From Obrimoposthia wandeli (taxonomy: Eukaryota): a DNA stretch of 64,000 nt. The stretch spans positions 1 through 64,000 of the forward strand of contig CDROCS010001116.1 of assembly GCA_977020255.1 (NCBI GenBank). The letters run 5' to 3'. Below are positions 2,060-53,184 of this stretch, piece by piece; within the stretch, counting starts at the first letter, position 1, and each line of letters opens with the position of its first letter. The notes under the pieces are model-generated. The model was not told the origin of the DNA. It did not search any database and saw only the letters and a list, made by a program, of their open reading frames with translations. Made by a program: the position numbers and the translations under genes.

Positions 2060-2475
2060 ACAGAAGTTGGTAATTTGCCAACTGTCCCAAAAAATTAAGA
2101 TTTGGGTTTGCAATACTTTTTCTCCTGTAGGTATGTTTTAGCGCTTCTAGTACCTGTATCTGTCTATTCTTATTAGATATGCTAATATCAGAGTTGCTGA
2201 TCGAGAAATTCCTTTCTGGCAATGTACCAACACTTTTCCTTGGTTTCGGAGTTCTCTGTGAAGTATTTCGTTTGTTTCACGAACCATTCGAGAAGATTAG
2301 CATCCATTGAGTCTTTTACTCTTAATGTCATAGCTCTGATCGTCTGATATTGCGATTTGTGATTCATTGTAACGTTGATCACATATGTTATCCCTTGTTC
2401 CGTAACAGTTTCTTTTCATCTGTTGCATCCTCCACATTTCCGAGGTACAACTTACCTGGAATGATCTCACTCTTC
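2060..2475 (-). CDS. MKP-like dual-specificity phosphatase, catalytic motif intact, split by two frameshifts
   Basis: SEIIPGKLYLGNVEDA / QGITYVINVT / VKDSMDANLLEWF / GKVLVHCQKGISRSATLILAYL (2198-2224) / IANPNLNFLGQL. Confidence 0.92.
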
Positions 2476-2959
2476 ATTTGTGGCATTAATTCTGACTCTT
2501 CAAGTTTTAGTCTTTCTAATCTCTTCTCTATCTGTTCGTCGATGTTAGTTGTTTTGTTGTTTCTTTCCTCTCAGCATTCGTATTGCTGGAGGGGATATTC
2601 ATCTTTGTCTCTGATGTCTGTTCCTTTGTTGAGTCTTCTTCCGACTCGGTCTCCTCTGTGATTTATTCGTCTTTCTTGTATATTCTGTTTCACGAATTCT
2701 ATGTTTTGTCTTTTTCTGCTCTCTTTAGCGAATTCAACCTCCATGGTTCTTCCGAATCGCTCTATTATGTTATCTTCGGATTCTGTTGATTCTGTATCGT
2801 TACTTTCCGGTTCGCTGTCTTCATCAGACTCGCTCGGAAGGGTATTCTGGTATGTCTGTCTGAACTGAAATTAATGAAGGTGTTAGAATAATTGGATTGA
2901 TTTCCCTTCGTATTTGTGAATCGGATACGGTATTACACTATCTTCCTTTTAAGTATCTT

Positions 2960-3929: not shown

Positions 3930-5200
3930 CTCCTGGTACTTCATTCTGAGCATACCAATTCTCGCTGGTTTTTTCTCGCTACCACTAGTCATCATGTTTA
4001 TGTAGTTCCGATCACTTACCATTCGTGTAAGTTTAATGGTATTGGTATTTGGCTTCGATTTCTGTGATCTTAACTCATATCGTGACGCATTGTCTTTATT
4101 TGGTACCAATTTGCATCGATTTGCATGTACAATCATCGGTTCCTTGTTCCGATTCTCTTCGTTGATTACTTTCAAATTTGTTGAGGTTGTCTGGATCACC
4201 TTGTATGGTCCTTTGTATGGTCTATGAAGTTTAAACGATAGACCTGGTTCGATGACTGGATAAAATATCATCACTTGATCTCCGACTCTAAATTCATGTG
4301 GTTTTGCTTTTTTGTCGTATTGTTCCTTGTAACCTTCTTGATTGAATTTCAACTTCAATCCGGCTTTGGTCCAAGCATCTTGTAACCTTTCCTTCATGAC
4401 GACAATGTATTGTTCAGTTTCTAGGTACTGAGATGTTGGCTCGGTCCACTCCAGATCCATTGGCATATTGTTCTGTCTGAGATACATCAGATAGAATGGT
4501 GTGTGACCTGTCGCCTCTCGAACTGAATTCCTGTAAGCATATAAACATGAAGGTAAATATTTATCCCAATCCTCTTGCTTATCTGAGCAATAGGATTGTA
4601 CCATCATACATAAAGTTTTATTAAACCTTTCCACCAGACCATCTGTCTGTGGGTGGTATGGTGAAGTTTGTAACTTCATGATTCCGAATATCTTCGATAC
4701 TGCTTTTATGACTTCTCCAGTGAAGTTCTTACCTTGATCCGTTAACAACTTTCTAGGTACTCCGTATCGAAATATTATCTCTTCCACTAAGATTTGCGCT
4801 ATTGTTTCAGCTTTCTGGTTCTGCATGGGGTATGCTTCTACCCATCTCGTCATGTAGTCCGTAAATACTATGACATACTTGTTTCCTTTACTTGATTCTC
4901 TCAATGGTCCCAAGCTATCCATCGCTGTGAATTCCATTGGTGCCAAGGGAACTGGCATTGGTTTCAACGGAACTTTAGTACGAGTTCCGGTGTCTTTTCT
5001 GGTTAAACATACTTTACATTGTTTACACCATTGTTTTATGTCGTCTTCCATACCATCCCAATGGTACTTCTCTTTGATTCTGGCTATTGTCTTTCGCCCT
5101 GACAGATGTCCTCCTAGTGTTCCGTCGTGATACTGATCATCACTGCTGTTTTCAATGACTTCGGAATTACTACTACTATCTTTCCGACATTATTGACAAT
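3930..5200 (-). CDS. pol: Integrase (HHCC, DDE core, GPY/F module)
   Basis: CKQC, AMDSLGPL, LTDQGKNF, YHPQTDGLVERFN, YKGPYKV. Confidence 0.96.
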
Positions 5201-5217
5201 ATACAAGATTCCTTCTT

Positions 5218-7044
5218 TTATCGAGTATTTTTCGCCATCTCATCGTTTAGATCTCCTTTCACCAACAAGTCTTTGATTAGACTCAGCTCTTCATCTTCTT
5301 TCTGTTCTTTGATGATCTCTTTGTCTATTTTACCCGTCTTTAGCAAAATCGTCAGTAGATTTGCTTCTCCTTTTTGGTCATTGGTTTCATCTTCTTCTGG
5401 AATTATGTTTCCTTTCTCGTCTACATTTGTCAATCTCGATAAACAATCTGCGTTGCCATTCGACTTTCCGGTTCTATAACGGATTTCTAGATCGAATTCG
5501 GCCAATTTTAGAAACCATCTGTTTAATCTACTCATCTCATCTCTATGTTTATATAAGAACTGTAGTGGTTTGTGATCTGTATACAGGAATACTTTTTGTC
5601 CTAGCAAATAGTGTCTGTATTGTCTACATGAATACACTATGGCTAGACATTCCTTTTCGATAACAGAGTATCCTCTTTCAGCTCTGTTTAATCCTCTACT
5701 CGCATACGCGATGACGTGTTCTCTTCCTTCGTCATCCTCTTGTCCCAATACTGCTCCTACAGCATAGTTACTTGCATCTGTCATAAGTATGAATTGTCGG
5801 TTTATATCTGGAAACGCTAATATTGGTGCTTTTATCAGTCTTTCTTTTAAATGCTCGAACGCTTGTTGGGCTTCTTTTCCCCATATGAACTTTTCATCTT
5901 TCCTTGTCAACTTTCTCAATGGTGTTGCTATATCTGAAAAATGTTCAACAAATCGTCTATAATAATTCGCAAGACCTAAAAAACTCTGTATTTTCTTAAC
6001 AGTCTTTGGCGCTAAATGCGCTTTGACTTTCTCGATCTTCGCTGGATCAGGTCGAATGCTTTCTTTCGATACTATATGTCCTAAAAATGTTACTCCTCTT
6101 TAGCCCATTCGCATTTTGTAGGTTTAACTTTTAATTTAGCGTTTTCCAGTCTTTTAAATACAACTTCAAGATTTTTTAAATGTTCTTCGAACGTTTTAGA
6201 AAATATTATTATGTCATCGATATAAACCATCGTGTTTGCACACGATGCGAGTACAAAATTCATGCAACGCTGAAATGTTGCTGGAGCTCCTGTCAGTCCG
6301 AATGGCATCTTTTCGCATTCGTACAATCCATCTCCGCAGGAAAAGGATGTTTTGTGTTTATCCTCTTCCTCTATCTCGATTTGCCAGTATCCACTCTGCA
6401 AATCTAATGTCGTAAAATAATCTGAATTACCCAATTTATCGAGCATCTCTTCGATTCTAGGTAATGGATACACATCTTTTCTTGTGATCTTGTTCAGTTC
6501 TCTGAAATCTATACAGAATCTCATTTTCCCATCCTTCTTTTTTTTGCACCAACACCACTGGTGCTGAGAATGGCGAAAAACTTGGTCTAATTACTCCTGT
6601 TTTAGACATATCTTCGATCTGACTTTTTACTTCATCTTGTAATTGTAATGGTACTCGATATGGTCTTCTTCTGACTACTTTGTCTTCTGTCAGTGGTATT
6701 GTATGTTTTATGACAGGTGTTTCTCCTATGTCATATGGATTTTTTGCAATTACTTTCGGAAATTTATGTATTAGATCAAGTAATTGTTTCTTTTCTCTAG
6801 TTGTCAGTCTTTCTGATTGAATTACTATTTCTTCGTAATCATTCGTATCTTTATCGAGTTTCATAGCACACGGTGGGATTCTCCATCTGTGTATCTTTCC
6901 CAACCTCATTCCTCTGTATAATAGAATGTCATTGTTGGTTGTATTCATCAGTCTAACTGGTATTTTATGGTTTTCGATCAGGCATACTGTACTCACAACT
7001 GGTAATTCGTATTTCTCTATGAAATCTCGTGATGGTTCGAACAC
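5218..7044 (-). CDS. pol: Reverse transcriptase and RNase H (frameshifted)
   Basis: RFCIDFRELN, YPLPRIEE, LDLQSGYWQ, MPFGL, YIDD; RNase H TDASNYAVGAVL, EKECLA, TDHKPL. Confidence 0.97.
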
Positions 7045-7099
7045 AACTGGTCCTTTATCTTCTGATAATGTGTGACCTTGAATAAGAAATTGCGATCTT

Positions 7100-7560
7100 T
7101 TACCGATTTTTAGGATTCTCTATGATTACATCAATTTGGTTTATTTGTCTGTTTGATGTGCTATCCTTCAATCTTGGATCTTGTAAATCAATACTTATCC
7201 CTTGCTGTTGTGATAGTACATCCATTCCTAAAATTGTAGGTTCAGGACATTCTTTCATGATTCTAACTGGTATAGTGATCGTATTACGTCCAATTATAAA
7301 TGTACATGGTAATATTCTCGTCACTTTTACAGGGTCTCCATTGACCGATACCAAGAATTCATCTGGTTCTGCCATTGTTCGTTTCTGTTCCTCTGTCAAA
7401 CAGTCTTCACTTACTATCGAAGCTACAGCACCTGTATCAATTAAAGCTTTTACTCTTAAATTATTTACTCTAATGATAGCTGCTGGTCGCTGTGCTCCAT
7501 TTATGTTTCCCATGTGGTATATTGTATTTATCGAATTATTACACTCTGTCAGTCCACCTT
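7100..7560 (-). CDS. pol: Aspartic protease domain 2
   Basis: KALIDTGAVASIV...ILGMDVL. Confidence 0.92.
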
Positions 7561-7985
7561 CCTATGTTTGGATAGTGAAATCTAATGCTCACTTGTCGAT
7601 CTATTATTCTTCGACAAATTGGACATGATACCATTTCATTCGCACATCTCCGACATGTTCTTACATGTCCGCATGGTAGAAAGGCAACTTCTATTTTGTT
7701 GACCATGCAAACTGCGCATTCCGGATCTTCTAGTACGTATTCTAATTCATTTATGTACTCTTTCTCTTGTTTCAATTGTACTGTCATCTTTATCTCGCAG
7801 TATTCAAAAATCGATCCGTATCCGTTTCGCGTAGTTTTTATTTTTAATTCTACCAATTCTCTGATTCTTTCTGCTTCTTTTGGATATAACCTTCTTACGA
7901 ATGACACTACCGGTGTGTCTTGTTGAGCTAAAATCTCTTTCCGTGTGATTTGGTATTCGATTATACATTCGGTTTTCTGTTCTTT
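7539..7985 (-). CDS. IAP UBA-like linker plus C3HC4 RING
   Basis: DTPVV...RIRELVELKIKTTRNGYGSIFE resembles the cIAP UBA. CAVCMVNKIEVAFLPCGHVRTCRRCANEMVSCPICR is an IAP-type RING. Confidence 0.9.
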   Translation of the reverse strand, partial: KEQKTECIIEYQITRKEILAQQDTPVVSFVRRLYPKEAERIRELVELKIKTTRNGYGSIFEYCEIKMTVQLKQEKEYINELEYVLEDPECAVCMVNKIEVAFLPCGHVRTCRRCANEMVSCPICRRIIDRQVSIRFHYPNIGRWTDRV

Positions 7986-7989
7986 TTGC

Positions 7990-8200
7990 TTTATTTTGTT
8001 TTTAAAAATACAAAATTCTGCAAAATTCATGATGTAAAATTTTCTTAGGTAGCTCAAGAGTATATCTGTCGATAATTCGTTCTTTTACACTTGTGGCATT
8101 TAATTACGTCTTTACCATCCTTATAGCAAAAAGTCCCTTTTTTGCCAATTTTTAAGTCTTGGATCTTCGAAAGTTACTTCTCGATATTGTTCGTCACATT
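7990..8200 (-). pseudogene. Degenerate or frameshifted BIR domain 2
   Basis: Across frames: REVTF...KLAKKG.FCYKDGKDVIKCHKC...HHEFC. The His-Cys spacing is not canonical. Confidence 0.55.
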
Positions 8201-8329
8201 CGTTCACTTCTCGCATAACTTCGTATATATCTTCAATTCGACTATTCATTATTACTCTTCCTGTTTTTAGAGCTGCTTCTCTTTTTAGGATCCGTCACTG
8301 TAATCGAAATCGGTGCTTTTCCCGGTTGG

Positions 8330-8586
8330 ATTTCTGGTACGTTTGACGTTTTCAGTTTCAAAAGAAATGGACAATTTGGTGCATCTCTTTTATGACGTCT
8401 CATTGGGTTTTCATTCTGTTCCCATTCTCTAAACTTTACTCTACACCATACGCATCGTACTACTATCTCCTGACCATAACTGCTTGTCGCATTTAGCATT
8501 TCTAAACCTGATCTTGCCATTTTACGTGCCATTCCTTTTGAATAGTACTGTTCTAATATATTTCGTCTCTTTCTCTCGAATCTCAT
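8330..8586 (-). CDS. BIR domain 1 of an element-borne IAP
   Basis: Exact CX2CX16HX6C signature (CVWC...H...NCPF, 8371-8454), preceded by MARSG. Confidence 0.92.
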
Positions 8587-8799
8587 GGGATCCTTTTCTG
8601 ACAGATTTACATATGTTATTTTTCTCCTCGTCGTATCTTGTGGTCCGAAATTTACATTTTTGTAGTGAAGTATCGACTTTGCTAGCGCTTCACTGTTTTT
8701 TGTCTGGGTACGAACTTCCCATACAGAACATATTGTATTTTTCCTTTTCGACTACAGGTCATCTCAACATTTTTATCTCTCTCACTGAACTGTCATTCT

Positions 8800-9130
8800 T
8801 ATAATTTTTGTTGTTTGGTAGTATAATTATTCCTTCAAACATTCGTATTACGTCCATCCCAATCATGACTGGACTACCGCAATCTGTGAATATTCTAGCA
8901 TTTAACTGTAATGCTCTTCCATCGATATTCAATGAACATTTCAGTGTTCCTTCCGACACTACATCTGTACCATTCACGTTAACAAATGTCTGTTTTCTAG
9001 GACATACTTCTCTTAATTCTTTTGATGACAAGATTTCTTTACTCAGTACTGATACTGCAGATCCGGTATCAACTTCGGCAAGATATTCTCTTCCGTTCAA
9101 TGTTACTGCTACTTGTGGTGGAGCATTTGG
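8800..9130 (-). CDS. Aspartic protease domain 1 (retropepsin)
   Basis: LAEVDTGSAVSVL...VMIGMDVI. Confidence 0.88.
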
Positions 9131-9236
9131 ATTCTCATTTGATATCCTAGACTTCAGAATTCTTCTGGAATTATCTTTTTGTCTTTTTCCTCTGCTTGTG
9201 GAATTTCAGTGTAGCTCACTTTAGGCCATCTTATCA

Positions 9237-11340
9237 TTAAGATGCCTCTCTTGAACTTTTCCTTCTCTCCTCCTTTCGTTCCTTCATTGCATATCGCCTT
9301 AACGCCACTTCCTCTTTGTCTGGTAACGGAATCTTTGGTTTTCCTGGTATCTTTGCATATACTCCTGGACTATCATTATCGTCGTCGTTATCGTCTCGAT
9401 AGTTTCTTGGTTCTCTCATCATGGTTCTCGTTTGGTGTTGTTCCTTCTTGAGGGCTCGCAACTCGTTCTCGTGATGATGATGGTGCATTAGATATTTTGC
9501 TAAAAATGGAAAACATCCAATTATAAGTTGCCAGGTGATTCCGGTTATCCTGTATAAACTATACGTAGACAACACCTGGGCTATAATTACCTGCACAAAT
9601 TTAATTATAACATAAATACCTATGATACCCGAAAATAATTGTCCTAAAACAAGGAATTTCCCCCACATCTTTCTAAGTGTCTGATGTGCTGCTTCCTTGA
9701 AATGACTTGGCGATAATAACATATCGAAATTCGCATATCTCGCTCCTGGCGGTAATGCTCGATGTACCATCTCCGTAAGTACTCTGGCTCTTCTTACTGG
9801 AAACATTATTTCGTTCCACGCCGCTTTTAAATCTTTTTCATTGTACAATCCTGCGTTCTCCATATTTTCCACCGCTTGGAATTTCATTTTACCTTTAAGA
9901 TTAGTCATTCTTATCATCGCTGGGGTTTTCGTTGGCTTTCGATCAGGTAACGTTATCCATAGATTATTCGTCATCTGATATTCAGGTGCCATTATATTAG
10001 AGCAGCTGATTTCTTTAGTTGGAGTGTCTTTTGGAAGCAACATTCTCGTGATTGGTTCAACAAAAAGATCTTTTAAATTATACGTTACTGCCAATTCGCT
10101 CGTACATCGATCTGTTTTTCTCAACTGTACCTCTACTTTATTACACTTGTAAGTATACTATACTTCTCCCATGGTTTTAGCAAATACTCCTTCATCCAAG
10201 GGTAATAATGGTGCTACCATGTCTGGATTCGTAATAGCTAATGCTAACTTTGTTCTTACGATCTCTTTGTTTAGCTGGCAATCTCTTTCTATCATCATCC
10301 GATATAACTGTTCCATTTGCATCAATCCTTTATGATAATAGAAATCAATTTTATTATTAAAATACGTGTGTAGCTGCATATCTTTTGGTTTTAGCTTGGT
10401 TTCTGCCAATGCTATTGCTTCTTTAGACAAAACTATTCCTGGATAGTTTGTAGTACTAACAGTCATTCCGCATCGCGCTTTGTTTCTCTTTTTAATAAAT
10501 ATCAATCCTTCTTCTATTGATGTTGCCATTAACAGTGTAGGTGTCTTTGTCATTGGAATTGGTCTTGTTTCATTGAGCAATCCTTTTCCTACTTTATTAT
10601 ACAGGAATCCTTTCTCCATCTTTATTATACAGGAATCCTTTTATTTTATTAAAGCTAATCTCTTTCAAAAATACTAAAGAGCATTGCTTCGGATTTATGT
10701 TATACATAATTTTGGCTTCCCCTGTAAAACAGGATGCATCTGTCATTTTACATTCTGGATACTTCATCATTAGTTGTGTCTTTTTATCAAAATTGGCGGT
10801 CCATGTTTTTAATTCGATCTTGTAAGTTACATCCATTACTAACTCAGATACTTTGGTTCCACGCACGTTTTTGTTTCTCCGTCACAAGATCCATCGGCCC
10901 ATCGTTGTCCGACTCTCGTGACTGTTTCGTATCGTCTCACTCCAATTTTACTTCAGGTTTGTAATTTTGTCTACCTCTATTGTTCCCGTTCGAAATGCAT
11001 CTTCGCAATCTCTCGGCAAACCTTATGTGCCTTGTACGGTGTGGTAGGTGTGATTTCTGACATAAAAACTTCTATGACCACAATAGAATTCGTGATAACT
11101 TGAATGGATTGAACATTCTTTCACTTCTACTTGTACTTTATCAACATCCTGATACACAAAGTAGTTTTCAACACCTTGAACTTCTAGTTTTGACGGTTGT
11201 GATTCTGGACAGTCTTCGCTGTCAAGCAGTGAATACTTTTGTCCCATCTTTGGTATGCTACAGTCATATGCTATCAATCCTGATGCCTGTTGCATTCCCA
11301 TAAACATTACTAACATCATCATCATCATTGTTGTGGACAT
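9237..11340 (-). CDS. env: Envelope: chuvirus (Jingchuvirales)-type glycoprotein, ~700 aa, in 4-5 frameshifted pieces
   Basis: Signal peptide then LIAYDC, FYCG, TNYPGI, TYFNNK, DCQL, GEV..YKC, AGLY..D, IMFP and a C-terminal TM region. The order and spacing match chuviral G motifs as I recall them. Confidence 0.85.
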
Positions 11341-11399: not shown

Positions 11400-11857
11400 A
11401 TGACATTGTTCGTCATCGTCTTCATTCATTTCCACAATGGTTTTAGCGTAGTCACTTAATTTTGCCCAACCTCCATTTTCGTCGATTCGTCTCTGTAATA
11501 CATTCTCGATCAAAATACATTGCTTCATTTATTCCTTGTTTGACTTCGTGAGGTTGGCTCGTTCGTTCCGTCAATTGGAAACATAGATATGTGATTGCTG
11601 TAATTAACTTTTATTTGTAGTTTGGTTTCCACATAATCTCGCTAAAACTTCACCGTCATAAAATCTATCTATCGATGCATGGTATACATGATTCGCGGTC
11701 ATTCTCTTTACTGCAGACATCTGTGATCTGACTGCTTTAGTCAAATTGTCTCGTTATATCGGTTGTTTCATCTCTGTACATTTTAAACAACTTCGGCTTC
11801 ACTTGCCTGAGAATTCCCGTAAGTATATCTTTACTACTTGGAGTTTCCGAATTCATA
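11400..11857 (-). pseudogene. Possible Bcl-2-fold domain split by frameshifts
   Basis: Reconstructed EVKQGINEAMYLIENVLQRRIDENGGWAKLSDY resembles the BH2 region (WIQENGGW). A hydrophobic helix KLITAITYLCFQL lies upstream. Confidence 0.4.
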
Positions 11858-12112
11858 TCACCTCTGATATCTTCTATTCCTTTCTGCACTATACTGCTCC
11901 AATGACGCTGCTAACTGTCCAATGCTTAGATGTCTCTCTTCATCAGTTTGTGGTGCAGTTAGAACGTTTCGTAATATACTTTCGCCTTTTCTAGGTCTTC
12001 CAGGTCCTCTTCGAAAATACTGATACTCAGTTTGATTCTCTCCCTGGATCATACGGTTCATCATTATACTGTATCTCTTGACTTGGTCCTTCTTCATGGC
12101 CAATCTCTTCAC
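11858..12112 (-). CDS. AT-hook-containing fragment, probably a frameshifted continuation of the Ubl ORF
   Basis: RRGPGRPRKG motif. Confidence 0.6.
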   Translation of the reverse strand: MKRLAMKKDQVKRYSIMMNRMIQGENQTEYQYFRRGPGRPRKGESILRNVLTAPQTDEERHLSIGQLAASLEQYSAERNRRYQR

Positions 12113-12178: not shown

Positions 12179-12742
12179 CTACAATTTCGAGACTTCGTCT
12201 TCTCCTACTAGTTGGGTTACGGTTTCGTTTTGTCTCACTTGGTTAGCTGTATCCGTGACTTCATCTTGTCTGATTGGAATTATATCTGCTGGTGGCACCT
12301 CGACCACTGGAGTTGTCAACTCATTTTCTAAATTCATGTCTTGTAATTCAGTTACGTACGGTTCTGGTGTGGATGTCTTGTTCCAAGCTTCAGCTACATC
12401 ATTATCTCCGCTTTCGCTTGAACTGTCTAAAATTTCTATAGGCGTTTTTATCATTTCTAACGCAGAATTCAATATCTCGGTTAATCCTTCATTATCTACT
12501 AACTCTTGACGTCCTACAGTGATGACATCAATTTTTTCCTCTAATTCATTTCCTATCGGATATCCAAACTCGACTGGTACGTCCTCATCATCTAGTGATC
12601 TCCCTTTATAATGGAACAACATATTCATTCCATCAATTTCAAGTTTCTCAGCCAACTTTTTCCGAATCGTTTTCATTGTTTGATACACGTTAAGTTTTTC
12701 ATGTATTATCTGTCCGGAAATTAATCGAAGTGAAATTTTCAT
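12179..12742 (-). CDS. Ubiquitin/SUMO-like domain protein with acidic tail; ATG overlaps the gag stop (ATGA)
   Basis: MKISLRLISGQIIHEKLNVYQTMKTIRKKLAEK...LFHYKGRSLDDEDVP...KIDVI aligns by eye with ubiquitin and SUMO beta-grasp patterns. Confidence 0.7.
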   Translation of the reverse strand: MKISLRLISGQIIHEKLNVYQTMKTIRKKLAEKLEIDGMNMLFHYKGRSLDDEDVPVEFGYPIGNELEEKIDVITVGRQELVDNEGLTEILNSALEMIKTPIEILDSSSESGDNDVAEAWNKTSTPEPYVTELQDMNLENELTTPVVEVPPADIIPIRQDEVTDTANQVRQNETVTQLVGEDEVSKL

Positions 12743-14991
12743 CGTTCCTTTTGGTTTGATCTCTGTACATAACGACCATAACCTTTCAGTAGTCCTCGGG
12801 GTACTTCTTTGTAACCCAAGTTATCATGACTATGTTTAACCAATTCTGCACGCACTTCTTCCAATCGGTGCACTTTAATTGTTTGCAATTTGGCCAGAAC
12901 TTCTGGAGCTTCACTCGTTTCATCTAACGGTTGATTTAACGTCTCCTTAGCTTCACTAATTATCTTTTTTACATTTTCCATACTCGTAGCATTTCTCGCT
13001 GCTTCCACATGATCAGTCATAGGTTGTGCGTTACACGTTTTCTCTATTGGTGTCTCATACGCTTCTAATATTCTATTCATTAAATCATTCATCTCTTCTC
13101 TCGAATGTAGACTTTTCTCTTGTTTCGACAACGTAGATGAATTCGCCATCTTTGTATGTGGTGAATCTTTAATTATTCCCAACATTCGTTCAAATTTACT
13201 ATCACTATCTTCAAAATCTATTTCGCGTCGAAGCTCGGTCTCGCGATTCCTATCACTGTCATCGCTTACATAACTAAAATTTCCTTTCGGTTTCGGCGAA
13301 CTCTCACGACTATTTGTCTTGTCAACATTATTATTATTATATCTACCGGAATTATTATATCTCTCAGCTCCTTGCTGTCCTACGTAATTATTGTATCTCT
13401 CAGCTCTATGCTGTCTGTATGCATAGTTATTATATCTACCTGGTGACTGTTGTCTATCTGTATACTGATTATTCAGTCTCCATGGTTGGGGAGTATATCC
13501 ACCACCTCTATTCCATGGCGGAGGTGAATTATATCCTCTATAATTATTTCCAAAATTATTATTACCGAAATTATTATTTCCAAATCTGTTAGTTCCGAAC
13601 TCTTTACTTCTCGTACAATCTCTCGAATAATGACCCATTTGTTTACACGTGTAACACATTATTCTCCCTCGAATATCTATCTTATTTTGTTCATCTTCGA
13701 ACTGTACTCGACGACTATTCTGTCTATTATCATAGCGTCCTCTAAAATCATTTCTTCGGAAATTCGATTCAAAACCGCTTCCTCGATTATTGAATCTTCC
13801 GTCACTATTTCCTGCATTATTTCCAAATCGAGAGTCACTTCGCTCTCCTCTGTTGGCGTTATAATTCCTATCGTCTCCTCTCAAGGTTGGCGATTTCGAA
13901 TTATCTCTATTAAATCTATTCCTGGAATCATCTCTATTTCTATTCCACGAATCATTATTATTTCTACCTCTTGAATCATCTCGATTCCTGTTCCAAGACT
14001 CACTATTATTTCTACCTCTCGAATCATCTCGATTCCTACTTCGGAAATTATCTCTATTTCCGTTACTGGATTCATCTACTTTTTCGAACTTATTTTGTCC
14101 ATAACTTCGATTCTGAAAATTACTCGGTTCTGTTTTATTCACGAAGACCTTTGTCTTATCGTCGTCACCTGCAGTCATTGCGTAGATTGCCAATGCTGCG
14201 TTATTCTTTATATTTTTCTCAATCTCTCTCGCCTTTCGCACGGCGTTATCAAAATCATTTGTATCCGATACTGCTAATAACACTTTAATATCCTTTTTCA
14301 ATCCTCCTCTAAATATATCTAACAAAACCTCTGCCATTTCATTTTGGTTCCGGTCATTTTCCGCTGCTTGTGCTTCTTGAGGTACAGGAATACCGTCCTG
14401 ATTTCTCATTATTCTTCTTGGGTACGCTCTTGCGGCCAAGGTTCTCAAAACATACGCGTATTCATTCACGCCTTCATCATGTTTCTGTTTCCGTTCTCTC
14501 ATGAGTCGCTTATTTACTTTGGCTAAGTCTCCTAATACCAATTTTCCAATAAAAGCATTTTCCAACGTTGGCCAATCTAAACGTTCTGCTTCTGTCAAAT
14601 GTTTATACACTTCAAGTGCTAATCCGGTTAAATGTGCCTGTACTCTAACACATTTTTCTTTATCGTTCCATCCTTGAACATCTGCACAACTCGAATATTC
14701 TGCGAGGAAGTCACAAATACTTTCCTCATCTCCTTTAAACTTTGTAATCTGCAATGATCCTGAAAAGTTGGGTCTCAACGTCGCATTTAAAGCTTGTGCC
14801 AACTGCTCGGCATTCATTTCACCTACATTATTTCCTGCATTAATATCTGCTTGAGCTCCTGGTTGAGCCATATTTTCAACTATAACTTCTTCAACTATTT
14901 CTTCAATATTATTCAATGGAACTTCCTCAATCACTACTGGATTGGCAATTTCAAATTCTTCTTGGTCTATGTCACCAAATAATTCAGTCAA
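12739..14991 (-). CDS. gag: Gag polyprotein (capsid region, N/R/G-rich repeats, single CCHC zinc knuckle)
   Basis: Retrotransposon capsid-like KFKGDEE...GWNDKEK...HLTGLA. Zinc knuckle CYTCKQMGHYSRDC. The frame is open upstream to ~15243 and the first in-frame ATG is at 14871. Confidence 0.93.
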   Translation of the reverse strand: MTELFGDIDQEEFEIANPVVIEEVPLNNIEEIVEEVIVENMAQPGAQADINAGNNVGEMNAEQLAQALNATLRPNFSGSLQITKFKGDEESICDFLAEYSSCADVQGWNDKEKCVRVQAHLTGLALEVYKHLTEAERLDWPTLENAFIGKLVLGDLAKVNKRLMRERKQKHDEGVNEYAYVLRTLAARAYPRRIMRNQDGIPVPQEAQAAENDRNQNEMAEVLLDIFRGGLKKDIKVLLAVSDTNDFDNAVRKAREIEKNIKNNAALAIYAMTAGDDDKTKVFVNKTEPSNFQNRSYGQNKFEKVDESSNGNRDNFRSRNRDDSRGRNNSESWNRNRDDSRGRNNNDSWNRNRDDSRNRFNRDNSKSPTLRGDDRNYNANRGERSDSRFGNNAGNSDGRFNNRGSGFESNFRRNDFRGRYDNRQNSRRVQFEDEQNKIDIRGRIMCYTCKQMGHYSRDCTRSKEFGTNRFGNNNFGNNNFGNNYRGYNSPPPWNRGGGYTPQPWRLNNQYTDRQQSPGRYNNYAYRQHRAERYNNYVGQQGAERYNNSGRYNNNNVDKTNSRESSPKPKGNFSYVSDDSDRNRETELRREIDFEDSDSKFERMLGIIKDSPHTKMANSSTLSKQEKSLHSREEMNDLMNRILEAYETPIEKTCNAQPMTDHVEAARNATSMENVKKIISEAKETLNQPLDETSEAPEVLAKLQTIKVHRLEEVRAELVKHSHDNLGYKEVPRGLLKGYGRYVQRSNQKER

Positions 14992-15483
14992 ATTAAAACT
15001 GCCGGTTGAAACCGCTGATTGATCAACGCCTCTTTCTGATACGTTTTCTTCGACTCTAGTCTTTTCTGTTACTTTGTTATCTGTTTGGGGAACCTGTTCA
15101 ATTCGGTTAACTTTATTATTATTTATCTCTTCCTTGGGAATCTGACTTTGTCTTCTAGTATTATACGCGGGTCCTTTTCTATTATCCGTTGTCTTATCAA
15201 TTATGTATTCGTTTACGATATCAATATACTTATTATTTTTATCTTATTTCACAATTCTTATTTTACGATTTTTTATCTCTTTAATTAGTTCGAGGACAGA
15301 GTCTCCCGACTTAACCTATTCAATTAATTACTTCGAGTATCAATCCACTCGATTCTCACTTTATCAATTTATTTACGATTTTATCTTTTTAATTAGTTCG
15401 AGGACAGAGTCTCCCGACTTAACTTATTCAATTAATTACTTCGAGTATCAATCCACTCGATTCTCACTTATAAAATTTACTGA

Positions 15484-16263: not shown

Positions 16264-16289
16264 ATCTCAATTTACTTATATCTTCTTCT

Positions 16290-16585: not shown

Positions 16586-16604
16586 ATCCTCACTCGGGGC
16601 ACCA
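16586..16604 (-). promoter_or_regulatory. Primer-binding site complementary to the 3' end of elongator tRNA-Met
   Basis: Sense TGGTGCCCCGAGTGAGGAT. The plus strand ATCCTCACTCGGGGCACCA matches the animal elongator tRNA-Met 3' end including CCA. It sits 8 nt from the LTR end. Confidence 0.9.
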
Positions 16605-17097
16605 CTTTAATATGTTGGGGTTTCTATACGAAACTTGGTATAGAGCCTCTTGACTGTGCGGAGGTCCCCAACGTGAGTTCGATTAGAAGCAGGTCTTAAA
16701 GTTGGTCGTGGCCTACTTAGTGTTATGGTTGCCTAATCTCTTGTACTATCTGAAGGTATTTGATTTGATGTCTCTTAGTCTGAAGGGTGTAAAAACAACT
16801 TGTTCTAATGTAGGAAATTGTTTATTCAAAATTCACGTAACTAACACCACAATACGTTTATGTACGTATTTCTAAAAAGTATGATAAAATTCCTAAAGGA
16901 CTTCTGTGAGTCTCTACAAGAAGTGGGGATGAACCACGTATCGATTTTACGTTCAGGTGATTAAGTTTCTTAGTTTTAGTCTTCTTACTCAGGTTGGTTA
17001 ATCTATAACGCAACTCTCTTAAATTTCTTCGCTCCTACTTCTTATCTCTAGCTACAATTTCTTGGTTCCTTACTCTCTCTGTGTGTGTTTGACCCGA

Positions 17098-17526
17098 ATT
17101 GTCTATTGTAGACAAGGGATCTCCTAAAAACCTAATTGTCAAGATGACAATGAAAACTTACTCCTAATTGTCAACTATGGACAATGAACGAACCGAATTG
17201 TCAGCTAGTGGACAATGAGTCTTACCGAATTGTCTACTAGGGACAATGAATATTTATCCGAATTTCCAACTAGGGGAAATGAATGAACCTAATTGTCAGC
17301 TAGGGACAATGAATCTTACGGGAAAAACGTCTGGTAGGTTTCCTAATTGTCGCTGGGGACAATGAATAAATGTCCGATCCTAATTACCAACTAGGGGCAA
17401 TGATTGTGTTAACGAGACAGTGATCCTAATTGCCAGCTAGGGGCAATGAATTTGTGTATTATTAAGAAAATGTAGAATTACCAACTAGGGGTAATGAATA
17501 TATCCTAATTGCCTACTAGGGGCAAT
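17098..17526 (-). repeat. Array of 12 short hairpins with covarying stems inside the LTR
   Basis: Units are ATTGTC-N5-8-GACAAT, with variants ATTTCC/GGAAAT, ATTGCC/GGCAAT and ATTACC/GGTAAT. Most loops contain CTAG. Spacers vary in length. Confidence 0.9.
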
Positions 17527-17649
17527 GAATGAACCTAGTCGGTGGTCTTACCAGTTACTCGAGATTCCTAAACGCGGTGGGATGTCCGATGCTGTTTCCG
17601 ATATCGTCTTCTCGCTCAGCCTTAGTCTTTTGGATACTGTCGGATCGAG

Positions 17650-18070
17650 TCTTTTGGGATACTCAGATATACTTTGGATATTCAGATATACTTTGGATAT
17701 TCAGATACACTTTGGATATTCAGATACACTTTGGATATTCAGATACACTTTGGATATTCAGATACACTTTGGATATTCAGATACACTTTGGATATTCAGA
17801 TACACTTTGGATATTCAGATACACTTTGGATATTCAGATACACTTTGGATATTCTTTCAAATATACTTTGGTTACTGTCTTTCAAATATAATTTGGTTAC
17901 TGTCTTTCAAATATACTTTGGTTACTGTCTTTCAAATATACTTTGGATACTGTCTTTCGAATATACTTTGGTTACTGTCTTTCAAATATACTTTGGTTAC
18001 TGTCTTTCGAATATACTTTGGTTACTGTCTTTCAAATATACTTTGGTTACTGTCTTTCAAATATACTTTT
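17650..18070. repeat. 19-bp tandem repeat grading into a 25-bp tandem repeat within the LTR
   Basis: (TTTGGATATTCAGATACAC)n followed by (TTCAAATATACTTTGGTTACTGTCT)n. Confidence 0.95.
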
Positions 18071-18152
18071 CTTTTCGGCTATACTTTTCCGCTCAACCTG
18101 CAGTCAGGGAGTTGATTCTGAATTTGTGTTTTCTGTCTTCAAAACCTCTGCC

Positions 18153-18158
18153 TTTATA
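18153..18158 (-). promoter_or_regulatory. Candidate LTR TATA box (sense TATAAAGG); predicted start site near 18122
   Basis: TATAAA ~450 nt inside the LTR 5' end, with an Inr-like TTCAGAAT ~30 nt downstream. A sense AATAAA at 16821-16826 would give a long R region. Confidence 0.45.
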
Positions 18159-18689
18159 CGAAACTTCCTGTCAGTCAACGACAGCTGAAATGAAATTAAA
18201 AGTTATTCGACTGCACAAAATGTGCTTACCTTTTCCTTGATTGACGGTTTGATTGCTGGAGAATATTCTTCCTGTCAGTCAACGGCAGCTGAAAAAACTC
18301 AAATTGATTTTACTGCACGAAATGTGCTTACCTTTTTTTTCTTGATTGACGGTTTTAATTAACCGTTTTTCTTTTAATTAATTCTTATTTTTTGTCGTCC
18401 TTGTTAATTAACTTTAAACTTTTATATATTTTCGCATAATACACGACCTTCGTGGTCCTCCTAATTTTACCCTAAATTTCACTAATTTTACTTTTAAAAC
18501 TTAATTTAATATTTTAATTTAATTTTCGACCTTGCTTTCAAGGATTTTTATTTTAGTATTTAATCGACTAAAATATTTAATTTTCTTAATTCTCAACCTT
18601 AACACCTTTATTGAAAGACAAAGTTATAATTTTTAAACGCAAATCTTTGGTTTGTATACCTAGCCAGTTAAGAAAATATCTGTCCTCAG

Positions 18690-45000: not shown

Positions 45001-46149
45001 TTTTAGAAATTATATCAAATCTCTCTATGTCAAACAATTTTATATTGATATTTCTGTCGCAAGTGACATTACATAAACTTGCAGACACACACGTAAATCG
45101 GTACCACTTCACAGATAGAAGCAGTGAAATAACATGTGTGTATGTGGTGCAGTTAAAATTGGGTAGGCAGAAAATCGATAGAGGATATAGTCATTTCTTC
45201 TGTGTTATCTCATACTGGGCAATTTTCCTACCGCGAAGCACAAGATAAAAACAGGACATCACTGACAAAATCGCTGTTCGACTATGGGCACTTCAATAAA
45301 TTGATTTAAATTTAAATTGGAATATTTTAATTCCCAACATATTTAACTTTTATCTCATGTGTTTGAATCCTTTCGCATAAAATCTTTATCAGAGGATGGG
45401 CTAGATCCTAAGCATTTATTTAGTTTACTGTGGCAACAGTAGGTGGATATGACCGGTCTAATCCACCTCCTCCCCGTGCTGTACTACTGTCCTTTAAAAC
45501 CGTGCATGTGTGGAGTGAAATTTCGTGAATGTGTGTTCAATTCACCCCCACCCGAAGGGGCGTGGGGTACCCCATACATTTTTTATGTGTTACTTGAAAT
45601 TTTGCAGCCAATCTCAAAAGTGATTAAAGAAGACCACTATAATAGATATTGACTCCCGTCGGCTTATTGCAGACGAGATTTCAGACAATACTTTTATGTG
45701 AATATATGACTACTATTTTTAAAGAGATAACAGATTTTACATTAATGCATTATTACATGTATGTTAACAGGACAAAATAACTAGGTCAGATTTATATAAT
45801 TTATAGGAGAAAGAGAACAAAATACAAGACTAAATTCATTTCAATACATTTATTAAACAACTCAAATATTAAACACCATATAAGCTTCACTCAAAGTCCA
45901 AAGATGTTGTATTTTCCTGTCATCAGCATAATATCCATTTAGTCGTATGGAAATATTCCATAGTTCTTCGTCTAAAATTGGAGCAATCAAAAAACCTAGA
46001 TAATTGTCTATTGTATTTTTTCTTGAAAGTTTCTTATAAACAAATATATGTTTTTCTATTTTTTAAAATGCTTATTGATAATATACTTTATTATACGACT
46101 GTAAATAATGTTTTAGTTAGACGAAAAATAGAATATTCTAGAATGAAAG

Positions 46150-46930
46150 TTTTGCATGTGAAATATACACGTGAAAGTGAAAGATTAAAATCGTTGTTTA
46201 TAAATTTTAATGGGAAACAATCTGAAAGTGATTTAGCTAAAGCCGGATTTTATAAACAGGATGATGATTCAGCCGATAAAGTAAAATGTATATACTGTCA
46301 AATGCATTATCTATTTGGGAATGGTATCTTAAACCAATGAAGAAACATATGATTTTTTTCTACATGCCCATTTCTTTTAAAATTACATTTTCAAATGTAC
46401 CAATTATTGAAACTAGTGATAAGAACCACCATTGATCGGAAAAGTATATGTATCAGATATTGACGTAAAATTACCTGATATATAATATTCAAAATGTTTA
46501 GGACCCTATAATGATGCTAATGTTATTGAGAAAATCGAAACAGATTGTATAATTGAATATCCTATAACTACAGAAAAATTCAATATGTTGATGGATACAA
46601 ACGAAATCAGATATTTGAAAAGGTTTTTTATCAAAAGATAGAATAAAATCTTTTTTTAAATATAAGATGATACGATATGGGGAATACAAATCACTATTTG
46701 AAATGATTTGTGATTTATCTTATTTAGAAATAAAACCTGAGAAACAATATATAAATATATTTTCATAAATTTTAAAAGACCTTAATGTGTAGTGTGTTTA
46801 AATAATCATATTTAAGTAGTATTTCTACCACTCAGACATGTAAATACATGTATATATAATGTCCCAGGATGCTACATTCATGTCCAGTATGTCGATGTAT
46901 AATTGAAAGGAGAATAAGAAATGTAAAATT
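46150..46930 (+). pseudogene. IAP pseudogene (BIR...UBA-like...RING) in the Maverick region
   Basis: RESERLKS...LAKAGFY...DKVKCIYC...KKH...TCPFLLKL..SNVP; ETDCIIEYPIT; CVVC...VVFLP.RHVNTC...CPVCRCII. Confidence 0.85.
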
Positions 46931-47289
46931 TCATGGTATAAACAATTGAAATTTGGCGATTTTTTCAAAAATGAATAAATAGGATAAATTAGTTGATGAT
47001 AATGTTGATGAAATTATAAAAGGAACAATAAATGGCGTTCAATACTTTTCAAGATTTAATGAAGATAGTCGTGATCACCTTAAAGAAATAATTCGCTCAC
47101 ATGTTTACAGAGATCTCAAATGGAAATTGGATCTTGAAAATTTCATTAAGATTATTCGTTCAAATATGATGTATATAACTTTTTCTGTATCAATTTTTAA
47201 TTCTTTTTTGGTGTATATATTAATAAAATGCTTATAAACAATATTCTTATTCTTATTATTTTTATTATTAATATGAAACTTTAAAATTA

Positions 47290-47885
47290 TGCGGTACATG
47301 TTGAACCAGTGGGACCCAGTGGGAGAGGAAAAATACATTTTGTAACTAAATTATTTCAAAACAATAAAATGTTTAATAATCGATTTAATGAGATTTATTG
47401 AGATTTATTGGCATTATGGTGATGTTTGTGAATCGGGGTTAACGAAAAGGGAATTATGTAAACTTAAAAACATAACATTTGTCAATGGTTTCGATTTAAA
47501 TTGGTTAAAACGGTTAAAACGTGATTATGTTATAGTAATTGATGACTTGTATGATGAAGCAAATAAAGAGTCAAGCTTTAATAATTTATTCATTAAAATA
47601 AAAAGAAACACTGTGTTACTGTAATTTTCATTACTCAAAACCTATTTCATCAAGGCGGTAAACATAGAACACGTAATTTAAACGTACATTGCTTGGTTTT
47701 TGTTTAAGAATCCTCGTGATCAAACGGTTATTGACTATTTTTCATGTCAAGCATTTCCTAATAACTGGCAATATTTGATAAATTCATTTCAATATGCAAC
47801 AAAAAATCCCCATGGATTCTTGTTTCTTGATTTCACTCAATCCTGTCCTGGTGAATTGAGAATACGAACCGATATTTTCAACAAC
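47290..47885 (+). pseudogene. Maverick packaging ATPase (copy 1)
   Basis: GPSGRGK, VIDDLYDEA, ITQNLFHQG, FKNPRD, GFLFLDFTQ. Confidence 0.88.
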
Positions 47886-50037
47886 TGTATGGTATATAAA
47901 CAAAATTAAAGATAATATTTCTTAAATATGAATTTTGAAAAATTGAATTTCGAAAAAATTGAAATGACTAATTATGTTGATACAAATTGGAAACCTTGTG
48001 ATGATATCAAACATAAAAGAGTAAAAAATTGATTAAAGCAGTGTTGAGGGAAGACAAAATGCTGATCGCATATTCAAAAAAGAAGACAAAGCTGAGAACT
48101 AAAAAACGTGTTAAAAAGAAGAATAAAAATGGGTTAAAAAGACAAAGAATTGTATTGTAATTGATAAAAAGGGAAAACAAAAAGGAGGTGTTAACTCATT
48201 TTCTCAATAAGACTATAAACAATATATGTGCTTTCAGGTTAAATAATAATGAAAAACGTTTTACCTTACTTTCAAACGCTTTTAAAAGCACCTAGTTCAC
48301 ATAGAGCTAAAATTCTCAAGTCATTTCCGCCTTTTGTTATAGATAAATTGGTTGAAATTCTGTTTTATATAATTAAAGGAAAAGTCAATCTCGGTAAACA
48401 TAAGTCGAAAGTTACAAAACACAAGAAAGTATTACTTGACCGATGCAAAAAAGGTTCCCGACACGATCGTACAAGACTAGTGACCCTAAACATTTATGGC
48501 AAAAGTGGGGGTACACTCTATTTTTATTTTACTTAAAAGTGTACCGATAATCTCAAAAGTGATTAAAGAAGACCACGGGAATCCATATTGACCCCGACGG
48601 CTTATCGCAGACGAGATTTCAAATAATATGTTTATGTGAATATATTACTACTATTTTTAAGAAAGATTTTAGATTAATAAATTACTAAATGTTTGTTAAA
48701 TATTTAAGTCAGCTTTTTTATAATTTATAAGATAAAAAAAACAAAATTAGTTTAGGTCAGATTTATATAATTTATAGGAGAAAACAATTATAGGAGTAAA
48801 ATCCCAAATACGAGACAAAATTTGTTTCAAAACTTTTATTAAATCAAACATAAAACATCATAATGGCTTCACTCAAAGTCTAAAGAGGCTGCATTTCCCC
48901 ATCATCGACAAAAATATCCATTGAGACGTATTGAAATATTTCATAGTTCTTCATCTAAAATATATATATAATCAGGTATGTAAAATCCCAAAATATTTTT
49001 CGAAAATTGATGTTGTTAAAATTTTGATGAGATATTTATTCTCCACTTTTTATATTTTCACAGGATTCATAACTCGAATAATTAGATGCATCTTTAATAT
49101 ATTACATGACTTTCCTTTTGAAATTATTTCTGAATAATAAAAATGTCCTACATATCTCAAAAGTGGATTCATTCTAAAATAAAGAAACTGATCAAAATAC
49201 AATGTTAAATAAAAACTGATTATTACATGCCAAATGAAGGAAACATATTAAAAATGAATAAAACCGATTAAAATTTATTACATTCAAAATCAAAGAAAAA
49301 TAAATAGTTAAAACATATGGATATGATTAGGACGTTCAATTTTCCACATAGGTAAAATTGTTCAAATTTCATCTTTATTGTAACCATAAAGTCGAATTCT
49401 TATAGTCCATTGCTTCTTTTTCGGAAACGCATCAACATATTTTTATCTTCATTAGTCATCTAAAAATGCTGTATCAGCTCCTCAGATATAAAATTCGTTC
49501 TTAAAGAATGAAAAATTTAGAACTGCCTTTTCAACTTTCGGTTTAAGATATTGAAAATCTGGTTTTTGAATATTTGATAAATAATAACTAAACTTTTTTC
49601 TTTCAATTGTCACAGAATTTACTAAAGCAATCAGTTGAGCCTTCTTCAAGAATCTGACTTTGTATTTTAAATATATTGTTTCACTTCTTCATACATATTC
49701 TTATCCGATTCTTCAAATATTTCTAAATCTTTATCACCGCTTAATATCCGTTGGCTATCGTCCATCATTGATAATTGTCTGTGATATGAATGCATTTATT
49801 ATGATTTGTCCTCTAATTCTTTTATACTAATTTGTAACAAAGACATGAATCTCATTGGTTAATATAACTAAAGCATTGAATTTGATTGGACTAAATCCAT
49901 ATTAAAAAACGAAATTTATTGGAAGAAATATATCATCCAATTATAATAGGTTTGCACGATATTTACAAGAAATGTGCAATAAAAAAGCAGGTTCAGACAT
50001 GTTTAAAGAAGAATTTACAGAAAACAATTTCAGTCAA

Positions 50038-50488
50038 ATGAAACTCGTAAATATAAATTATAAAGGAAGAATAGAAGATTATATTTCATACTCGCATTTA
50101 ATGTTTGGAAGCCGAGACAATATCTGAAAACGTTTGATGATTTCACAGTTGTTATTTTTCCTTCAGGTTAGTTTTTATTTTTATTTCATATTGAATTATT
50201 TTAGGAAGTTGTCGTGTTAGGGGATACAAAACACCATTGAATGAGTTCAATTTATCATTTGGAATTCAAATCAGCACCATACAGACAATCACAATTTCAG
50301 CTTATCTCGGGAAAGCAATAAATATTTATAAAATTTCAGAGAAAATGAAAGAAGAATGCATGTTTGAACCGGAAATTTTTCCTACTCTCAGATATTTGAA
50401 GTCTACACCGCTATGTGTAAATATATTTTCCAGTAGTAAAGTTATGATATTGGGATTGAGAAATTTTGATTATCCAGACACTGTTTGA
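50038..50488 (+). pseudogene. TBP-like gene with a predicted 38-nt intron (50167-50204) and one frameshift
   Basis: VVIFPSG|SCRVRGYK after splicing and MFEPEIFPTLRY...VNIFSSSKVMILG mirror the two TBP repeats (IFSSGKMVCTGAK; YEPELFPGLIY...IFVSGKVVLTG). Confidence 0.7.
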
Positions 50489-50809
50489 TTAAACCAATTG
50501 TTTCAAATGAATAATACTATAAATAGATACAATGAAGGGGATCGATGAAATTTTTTTCTGGAAAAATTAAATGTAAATAAATTTTATCAAAATTAAAAAA
50601 TTATGATACAACAAGAGATAATATTGAAATATTGGTTAGATCACATGTTATTTGAAAATTTAGAAATCAAACACAAATAAAAAAATTATATACAAATATT
50701 CATTAATTAATTTTTGTATTTCATCTACAGTAGCTCTAACATTATACGTTTCATTAAGGAAACTTCAATAATAATATAAACAATATTAAAATGAAAGAGT
50801 ATATGTAAT

Positions 50810-51415
50810 GGAGCTAAATAATGCTGTATTTCAAATAGTTGGTTCGACTGGAAGTGGAAAGACACATTTCGTATGAATATTGTTGCAAAATGAATCTATT
50901 TTCAACTCTAGTTTCAAAAATATTTATTACCATCGTGGTGGAGGAGGTGAAAGTAGATTAACCCAAACCGAAGTTTACAAGTTGAAGGGAATAAATTTTA
51001 TTAAAGATTTGATGCGAATTGGTGCGAAAGATTGAAAAAAGAAGATGTAATAATAATTGATGATTTGTATCAGGAAGCTAATAAGGAATCGGACTTTAAT
51101 AATTTATTTACAAAGATAGCAAGACATCGTGAAGTAACAGTTATATTTATCACTCAAAATCTTTTTCACCAAGGAGATCATCATAGAGCAAGAAATCTTA
51201 ATGTACATTACTTAATATTATTTAAATATCCTAGAGATCAAACAATTGTAGATCTCGTAGCCAGACAAGCATTTCCCCAAAATAAAAACTTTCTAGTTGA
51301 TTCATTTCATGATGCTGCTAAACAAGCACATGGGTATATATATATATATATATTGACCTTACACAATCTTGCCCAGATGATTTACGTGTTTTAACAGACA
51401 TATTTAATTCTAAGG
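50810..51415 (+). pseudogene. Maverick packaging ATPase (copy 2)
   Basis: VGSTGSGKT, IIDDLYQEA, VIFITQNLFHQG, FKYPRD. Confidence 0.9.
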
Positions 51416-51642
51416 GAGTAACTGTTTATAAACAAATAGAGAACAATTATATAAAATAAATTTGCAATGCATTTTAAGAAGTTGATAGTGAAACGTAAAC
51501 GTAAAGTAAAAGCAAGACCTAAGAAATAAAAAATAAAAAAACAATAATTAAGAAAAAATAAGTGAATAAATTAATTTAGTTCGAAGTAAAAAAAAATTAA
51601 ATAACTTTGAATATAAACAATATTAAACATGAACTTTTATTT

Positions 51643-51975: not shown

Positions 51976-52063
51976 ACAATTATTTATAAAATCAGTTAAA
52001 GATATGGGTGCTAACCCTTCTTTATCTAAATTTAAATTTTCTTTCTATTCAAATTGTTGTAAT

Positions 52064-53170: not shown

Positions 53171-53184
53171 TGAAATCTTTGTAA

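Follow-up and report, generated by a model that had tools for sequence, protein, structure and literature searches.

A giant env-before-pol gypsy retrotransposon encoding a BIR-BIR-UBA-RING IAP between two retropepsins of its polyprotein

The window studied here (the whole stretch of DNA analysed, 64,000 nucleotides) carries on its minus strand a ~23-kb gypsy LTR retrotransposon, in which an IAP with two BIRs, a UBA and a RING lies between two retropepsins, PR1 and PR2. Analysis of this element and its copies demonstrated that PR1, the IAP and PR2 share one reading frame in natural copies, that both catalytic triads are intact, that the two proteases and each of the four IAP domains are under purifying selection, and that the closest kin of the IAP are standalone Polinton genes of the same genome. 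Based on these results, it was hypothesised, with a probability of roughly 0.65, that the proteases of the element cut on both sides of the IAP and would thus release a soluble protein, likely a ubiquitin ligase, that keeps the host cell alive.

Results

Organisation of the element

In natural copies the domains follow one another in a single frame in the order Gag-Ubl-env-PR1-BIR-BIR-UBA-RING-PR2-RT-RH-IN-phosphatase. Relatives used for comparison were the 12 sequences with the same env family among 120 listed long RT matches, of which P0257 is of another layout, and three further sequences from another search; this group contains 13 relatives with an RT. The features of the window are as follows.

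16613..18604, minus strand: 5' LTR (TG...CA), which contains tandem repeats of 19 and 25 bp
16586..16604, minus strand: primer-binding site, whose 19 nt pair with the 3' terminus of host tRNA-Met(CAT)
12768..15243, minus strand: gag, capsid-like, with one CCHC knuckle; start of the polyprotein (Pfam zf-CCHC, E 8.5e-6)
12514..12745, minus strand: ubiquitin-like domain (Pfam ubiquitin, E 0.017, below cut-off)
11420..11874, minus strand: possible BCL2-like domain, weak (Pfam Bcl-2, E 0.093, below cut-off)
9533..11340, minus strand: env, mononegavirus/gB-type fusion glycoprotein (Pfam Monjiviricetes_fusion in three pieces, best E 2.6e-48)
9229..9243, minus strand: candidate cleavage site before PR1, I-x-M-[LI]-R
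8828..9118, minus strand: PR1, retropepsin with DTG (Pfam)
8762..8776, minus strand: candidate cleavage site after PR1, which would set the N-terminus of the IAP
8359..8691, minus strand: N-terminal hairpin of the IAP and BIR1 (CX2CX16HX6C) with an atypical peptide-binding groove
8010..8228, minus strand: BIR2, clade-specific variant CX2CX18HX3C
7783..7943, minus strand: UBA-like domain without the MGF motif
7578..7742, minus strand: IAP-type RING with Arg after the last cysteine
7511..7577, minus strand: 21-codon linker and candidate cut before PR2; holds a private frameshift and the 7539 stop in this copy
7196..7486, minus strand: PR2, RT-proximal retropepsin with DTG (Pfam)
6862..7135, minus strand: conserved domain of the PR2-RT interval (matches in 11 of 13 relatives)
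4086..6729, minus strand: RT, RNase H and integrase (Pfam RVT_1, RT_RNaseH, Integrase_H2C2, rve)
2085..2495, minus strand: dual-specificity phosphatase of the same polyprotein, 3' of integrase (Pfam DSPc, E 6e-42 in a natural copy)
45873..53229, plus strand: decayed Polinton-like element, separate from the retrotransposon, whose standalone IAP belongs to the same clade (Pfam BIR, rve and weak Pox_A32)

The element has the traits of Ty3/gypsy (Metaviridae), namely the PR-RT-RH-IN order, a gag with CCHC, TG...CA LTRs, a tRNA primer site and a short target-site duplication. The 3' LTR of the window copy falls beyond the contig start; four other copies are ~23 kb each with LTR pairs 89-99% identical, and three of these four have 4-bp target-site duplications. 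The gag capsid region and the ubiquitin-like domain found matches in 8 and 7 of the 13 relatives, respectively, and hydropathy predicted one transmembrane segment in env. Two further comparisons of the stretch at 11420..11874 gave no support for BCL2; it is placed like the BCL2-like domain of the planarian Burro elements as described in the available text of PMC6431247; the same text puts a dUTPase-like domain at the equivalent of the PR2-RT interval.

Several other sequences were observed in the element. A 49-bp tandem array occupies the leader at 15383-16417, and the LTR-internal 19- and 25-bp arrays lie at 17616-18102. Another domain occurs in two tandem copies after the integrase (about 3950-3250, minus strand; 23% identical, E 5e-9), the first with a candidate cleavage motif just before it. 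In natural copies the phosphatase (2495-2085) has an HCxxGxxRS motif that looks intact; at about 1990-1600 on the minus strand lies another stretch that resembles a phosphatase more weakly. The C-terminal 900 aa of the natural polyprotein contain four more hydrophobic segments, which suggests further membrane proteins at its end. Small separate ORFs lie near the 3' end of the element (L054:6487-7062 and L054:7343-8029, both minus strand); one of about 229 aa is present in all four full copies, and a 192-aa frame near the 3' end of the L054 copy has a RING-H2-like pattern when read by eye. A tandem array of ~38 tRNA-Met(CAT) genes with ~284-bp spacing, encoding the predicted primer, was seen at L105 (G000:C2252). 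Elsewhere in the window, two repeats 79-85% similar (24960-25613 and 58482-59118) start like the LTR end of the element by eye and are possibly solo LTR remnants of a related family, and probable host exons lie at 22094-22648 and 27626-28000 (plus strand) and at 41688-42098 (minus strand).

Reading frame among copies

The sequence-only reading had described a complete IAP, which either was part of a polyprotein between two proteases or, joined to PR1, formed a separate ORF ending at the 7539 stop. All parts of the IAP are present in the window, but this copy is broken by 17 frameshifting indels from the env tail to RT, and its parts lie in different frames; the intact frame is found in natural copies, and only these were read for frame analysis. 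The genome (1.35 Gb) contains at least 150 copies of the element with PR1 99% identical, and the median nucleotide divergence is 3.6% (60 copies). The sample is non-random, as twenty loci were picked for their similarity to the window and forty on the basis of env score; 59 copies were compared with one open copy, and 53 were covered over >90%.

One copy has a single natural frame of 5,478 aa from gag to past the phosphatase. PR1 to PR2 is unbroken in 16 of the 53 copies, and the stretch from env to RT is open in 3 of 20 loci. The RING runs on into PR2 in 18 of 20 loci, its end being open to PR2 in 44 of the 53 copies, and the 7539 stop is private to the window copy. No frameshift site is common to more than 7 of the 53 copies, while one stop inside the RING is common to 5 copies. 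Since 119 of 209 frameshifting indels touch homopolymers, part of them may be assembly error.

A nested element contributing PR1 and the IAP was the other possibility to be considered. No internal LTR or long repeat was found flanking PR1-IAP, its base composition is like that of the rest of the element, and read depth is even across the region (4 runs, one sample). The open junctions and the absence of an internal LTR thus refute both the separate ORF, for which the stop in the window copy had spoken, and the nested element, to which we assign practically no chance. Searches for sister families in the same genome gave only apparent members of this element, to which all 40 of the 40 env matches examined belonged. 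An exact 14-nt direct repeat, with one occurrence per protease gene at non-equivalent places (7279-7292 and 8843-8856), is probably due to chance.

Purifying selection on the proteases and the IAP

Variants common to at least two copies were compared with singletons, shared variants being informative because they have passed through transposing lineages. For BIR1, BIR2, UBA and RING together, pN/pS was 0.19 for shared variants and 0.65 for singletons (Fisher p 4e-5 for singletons against variants in at least four copies). The values for the individual IAP domains were 0.28 (BIR1), 0.22 (BIR2), 0.03 (UBA) and 0.14 (RING), that of BIR1 being 0.43 for variants in at least four copies. Values of 0.10, 0.02, 0.06 and 0.05 were obtained for PR1, PR2, RT and PR2-RT, respectively. 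Both linkers bordering the IAP are unconstrained (0.88 and 1.75, from few sites), with 1 silent and 5 replacement changes in the RING-PR2 linker. The catalytic Asp is present in 60 of 60 copies read for PR1 and 56 of 56 for PR2. The RING zinc ligands are kept among copies, as read also for the last two ligands of BIR2 among those of the BIRs. Conservation among copies, on which the sequence-only reading depended, thus extends to both proteases and the IAP. BIR1 and the segment preceding it (8760-8360) contain many sites with at least three amino-acid states, some beside the peptide groove, which could be due to relaxed or diversifying selection. These sites and the RING stop common to five copies speak against such constraint.

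Domains of the IAP

Pfam detected a BIR at 8751-8245 (E 8.4e-11) and a C3HC4 RING at 8084-7542 (E 8.6e-13), both above cut-off, and the canonical CX2CX16HX6C pattern of BIR1 was found at 8454-8371, in agreement with the sequence-only reading. The second BIR, which had been called degenerate, is a real domain: a profile of eight clade members gave a profile-profile match of 93.5% to ordinary BIRs (control, 0.1%). Because its zinc pattern CX2CX18(19)HX3C is kept in seven of the eight members (with a spacing of 19 in one), BIR2 is regarded as a conserved variant and not as a decayed domain. The linker read as UBA-like likewise matched the UBA-like segments of ordinary IAP matches (95%; control, 0.9%) and gave a weak alignment with the cIAP1 of 3T6P. 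In an AlphaFold model built on 40 aligned rows (pLDDT 75, pTM 0.42), BIR1, BIR2, UBA and RING were all folded, with the packing of the domains unsure owing to the pTM. This model matched BIR structures, RING structures and viral IAPs; its BIR superposed on that of BIRC6 with a Z of 12.5 and an rmsd of 2.1 over 86 aligned residues. A single-sequence fold of BIR2-UBA reached a pLDDT of only 43, and the prediction score of a RING homodimer was 0.06.

BIR1 has K, R and D where BIR3 of cIAP1 has G, E and W, positions which we take to be peptide-binding sites, and the MGF that the UBA lacks is presumably the ubiquitin-binding motif of such domains. Caspase and ubiquitin binding are doubtful for these reasons. 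The RING carries all C3HC4 zinc ligands and has Arg after its last cysteine, as in cIAP1, at what we assume to be the linchpin position. Arg is named as the favoured linchpin of RINGs in the available part of PMC12326332.

The tail of the RING deserves attention, as RING tails are described as aiding dimers (PMC3406662, available text) and a near-free C-terminus had been presumed necessary. This premise describes ordinary IAP matches, in which mostly 13 residues follow the last CxxC (88 of 110, 81 of these being aromatic at position 11), but not the clade of the present IAP, in which Phe is mostly at position 13 and standalone members end 13-29 residues after the last CxxC (17-18 in Polintons). 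Among 113 other RING-bearing sequences, four have very long extensions or internal RINGs (tails of at least 26 residues). Judging from its standalone members, the clade of the present IAP tolerates extension of the RING tail. The fused RING is internal in the polyprotein, with 34 residues from the last CxxC to the predicted cut, and a near-free end after cleavage is plausible. A cut directly after the RING Phe, which would leave a tail of canonical length, was rejected, as nothing found supported that site.

Two proteases as a trait of the clade

Full-length retropepsin domains flank the IAP, as had been read (Pfam matches above cut-off at 9205-8762, gag-asp_proteas, E 3.5e-7, and at 7561-7103, E 1.3e-9), with DTG triads at 9070-9062 and 7438-7430. 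A double protease is not peculiar to the IAP-bearing element. Two retropepsin domains precede RT in 10 of the 13 relatives (one without the triad) and one domain in the other three; seven relatives have a third retropepsin after the integrase, and no BIR was found in these env-before-pol relatives. Since two proteases are common in the clade without an IAP, they need not exist to excise it, and their acquisition for that purpose is not favoured. No third protease was found in the present element. By domain content, polyproteins with two to four retropepsins characterise this gypsy clade as a whole, contrary to the rule of a single protease per element. P0011, an RT-less gag-env fragment, has four retropepsins in tandem, and P0083, on a contig of equal length, has two more before RT. 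The proteases enclose ankyrin repeats in P0207, C2H2-like fingers in P0205 (Pfam), P0008 and P0202 (both by eye), and plain spacers of 82-129 residues in other relatives.

In the RT tree the element and 12 relatives formed one clade (99/97). Two single-protease members branch between the element and the ten two-protease relatives, a pattern compatible with a single gain plus two losses as well as with two gains. The phylogeny of PR1 and PR2 (28% identical) placed PR1 as sister to the element's own PR2 (support 77), and the extra proteases of the relatives formed a clade without it (95/90); this comparison, proposed in the sequence-only reading, gave a placement that is not exclusive, as the joining of PR1 to the relatives' accessory proteases was not rejected (AU p 0.55, tree without 9 long-branch rows).

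Candidate cleavage sites

I-x-M-[LI]-R occurs five times in the polyprotein against 0.15 expected, although the pattern was picked by eye and, in 1 of 60 shuffles, the best pattern was just as extreme. Each occurrence is at a domain border (one on either side of PR1, one after the integrase, and one each ahead of a further domain and the phosphatase), and the sites are near-invariant among copies. In the relatives 10 of 34 protease domains are preceded, at a distance of 9-19 residues, by a relaxed form, [IV]-x-M-[LIM], a 10-fold enrichment that two control patterns did not show; this form was chosen after viewing the flanks, and the relatives are not independent. The strict motif precedes 3 of the 34 (p 0.014), and within the present polyprotein the relaxed form is not enriched (7 against 4.3 expected). 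The predicted cut before PR2 is at a looser hydrophobic site without a strict match, and a hydrophobic site ahead of the RT-proximal protease was also seen by eye in relatives. Standalone homologues start and end where the homology of the fused IAP starts and ends. From these patterns we regard sites of the I-x-M-[LI]-R type as candidate protease cut sites.

Kinship with Polinton IAPs

Standalone ORFs of about 300-340 aa, present at high copy number and built like the fused IAP, were recovered by a BIR search of the genome, which could have missed intron-bearing host IAP genes. Their carriers have terminal inverted repeats, an A32-type ATPase, an integrase and polymerase B, and are thus Polintons. 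One of them, C3067, is ~15 kb long with 589-bp inverted repeats at 89%, rve with Chromo, Pox_A32 and candidate capsid ORFs of 327-431 aa without a Pfam match; DNA_pol_B_2 lies beside the IAP of another copy. The decayed element at 45873..53229 is 67-80% identical to C3067. Identity to the fused IAP is 34-39% for Polinton IAPs, against 26-31% for five database proteins and 17-25% for 29 other IAP-like matches. The RING tree grouped ten clade members, fused, Polinton and database (SH-aLRT 84, for a group defined after seeing the matches), and the BIR1 tree needs two changes to give the same group. These comparisons indicate that the fused IAP is likely kin to the standalone Polinton IAPs. No relatives of the element were found among viral contigs, nor PR1-IAP-PR2 among longer database proteins by a word-index search. 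Structures derived from Polintons were also observed at L036-L037, L053 and L040; their inverted arms are 3-4 kb long, match at 95-99.9%, and both carry the IAP or a neighbouring gene.

Discussion

The hypothesised release of the IAP would proceed as described below. Since Env precedes Pol and has one predicted transmembrane anchor, the chain from PR1 onward would be cytosolic and held at the membrane. Pol would be freed by cuts at I-x-M-[LI]-R-like sites on both sides of PR1 and at a comparable one ahead of PR2, and the content between the proteases would be released as a by-product. The released IAP would have ~25 extra residues ahead of its natural start and 21 past the conserved Phe of the RING, and would work mainly through the RING, given the atypical peptide groove of BIR1.

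Could the IAP be released and yet serve the replication of the element, through protein turnover, trafficking or budding, or NF-kB-type signalling, instead of blocking apoptosis? We consider this unlikely. The constraint is strongest on UBA and RING (0.03 and 0.14) and weakest on BIR1 (0.28, or 0.43 in at least four copies), which, together with the unusual groove and with the phosphatase and ubiquitin-like domain of the polyprotein, favours such a role; the anti-apoptotic effect reported for the corresponding Burro1 region (available text of PMC13465017) and the resemblance of standalone Polinton homologues to viral IAP genes, with IAP carried by adintoviruses (PMC8502044, available text), argue against it. 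Somewhat less likely still is partial processing, in which the IAP would act while joined to PR1, PR2 or the tail of Env; it could then be, for instance, a ligase anchored to the membrane, or a spacer allowing PR1 and PR2 to pair in one chain. The site before PR2 is the weakest prediction, and because standalone homologues have tails of 13-29 residues, a canonical free RING end would not be needed; the four long-tailed or internal RINGs among the 113 other sequences point the same way. Retropepsins, however, normally free their own N-terminus, the hydrophobic site ahead of the RT-proximal protease recurs in relatives, and the linker between RING and PR2 is unconstrained like a spacer.

The idea that the IAP is a passenger, kept only for frame and length, is very improbable. 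Relatives do replicate with other cargo or with spacers of 82-129 residues, but replacement changes have been purged in all four IAP domains with the flanking linkers free, and the RING zinc ligands are kept; the selection pattern among copies largely refutes this idea. Release of an IAP that protects the host cell is therefore the reading that we prefer.

IAP-bearing giant gypsy elements are already known. The planarian Burro/GYPSM1 elements are described in PMC6431247 (available text) as a single ORF with an in-frame env and ubiquitin-like, BCL2-like and BIR domains. Measured against these descriptions, and not against Burro sequences, the present element shares the ~5,000-aa single ORF, Gag, env between gag and pol, PR, RT, RH, IN, BIR, long LTRs and very high copy number, and also, with Burro1, a RING besides the BIR in the polyprotein (PMC13465017, available text). 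The ubiquitin/SUMO-like and BCL2-like domains of Burro may have counterparts in the two matches below the Pfam cut-off, and its dUTPase-like domain in the PR2-RT interval. That source, citing Lee et al. 2026, reports that the BIR and RING region of Burro1 protects planarian stem cells from caspase-mediated death. Differences from Burro, as far as its available text goes (PMC6431247), are that one protease is named and no position is given for the BIR, whereas two proteases are present here; that MATH and ankyrin are listed and a phosphatase is not, whereas here a phosphatase is present and no MATH or ankyrin gave a Pfam match; and that there are 2-3 CCHC knuckles in place of one. GAG-ENV-POL errantiviruses with an HSV/gB-type env, reported from Nematoda, Bryozoa and Platyhelminthes (PMC13524379), share the gypsy RT and the gB-type env before pol; the available main text mentions no BIR, RING, apoptosis or second protease.

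With the IAP genes of Polintons/Mavericks, noted in adintoviruses (PMC8502044, available text), the fused IAP shares the clade, the N-terminal hairpin, the UBA and the RING tail. In Polintons the IAP forms an ORF by itself, which stops 18 residues past the last CxxC; one Polinton family is without BIR2. Two BIRs and a C-terminal RING are common to baculovirus IAP3, DIAP1 and cIAP1, with a UBA as in cIAP1. Unlike these, the present IAP has a variant BIR2 zinc spacing, an atypical BIR1 groove and a tail aromatic at position 13 instead of 11, and would be made by cutting from a polyprotein. The literature on two-protease retrotransposons, IAP in LTR elements, Burro and Polinton IAPs yielded, in titles and abstract openings, no protease-flanked IAP and no Polinton link. 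Within this scope, the slot between the proteases, the extra proteases across the clade and the kinship with Polintons appear to be new; the recurring I-x-M-[LI]-R border motif was also not found in print.

A wider proposal, offered tentatively and with less than even confidence, is that a cargo slot bounded by proteases has arisen in env-before-pol gypsy elements, filled here by an IAP from Polinton DNA viruses, not the host's, and in relatives by ankyrin repeats or zinc fingers. The second protease, in freeing Pol from Env, might also make any inserted cargo a free cytosolic effector.

A RING inside a 5,000-residue polyprotein needs a route to an active protein; the locus suggests one that can be tested, down to the expected ends of the product. 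The kinship with Polintons suggests that the anti-death gene came from an exchange of genes involving a retroelement and a DNA virus-like element. RING-containing IAPs have been reported as lost in flatworms in the available text of PMC13159474; if the host is a flatworm, mobile elements may be its main source of RING-containing IAPs.
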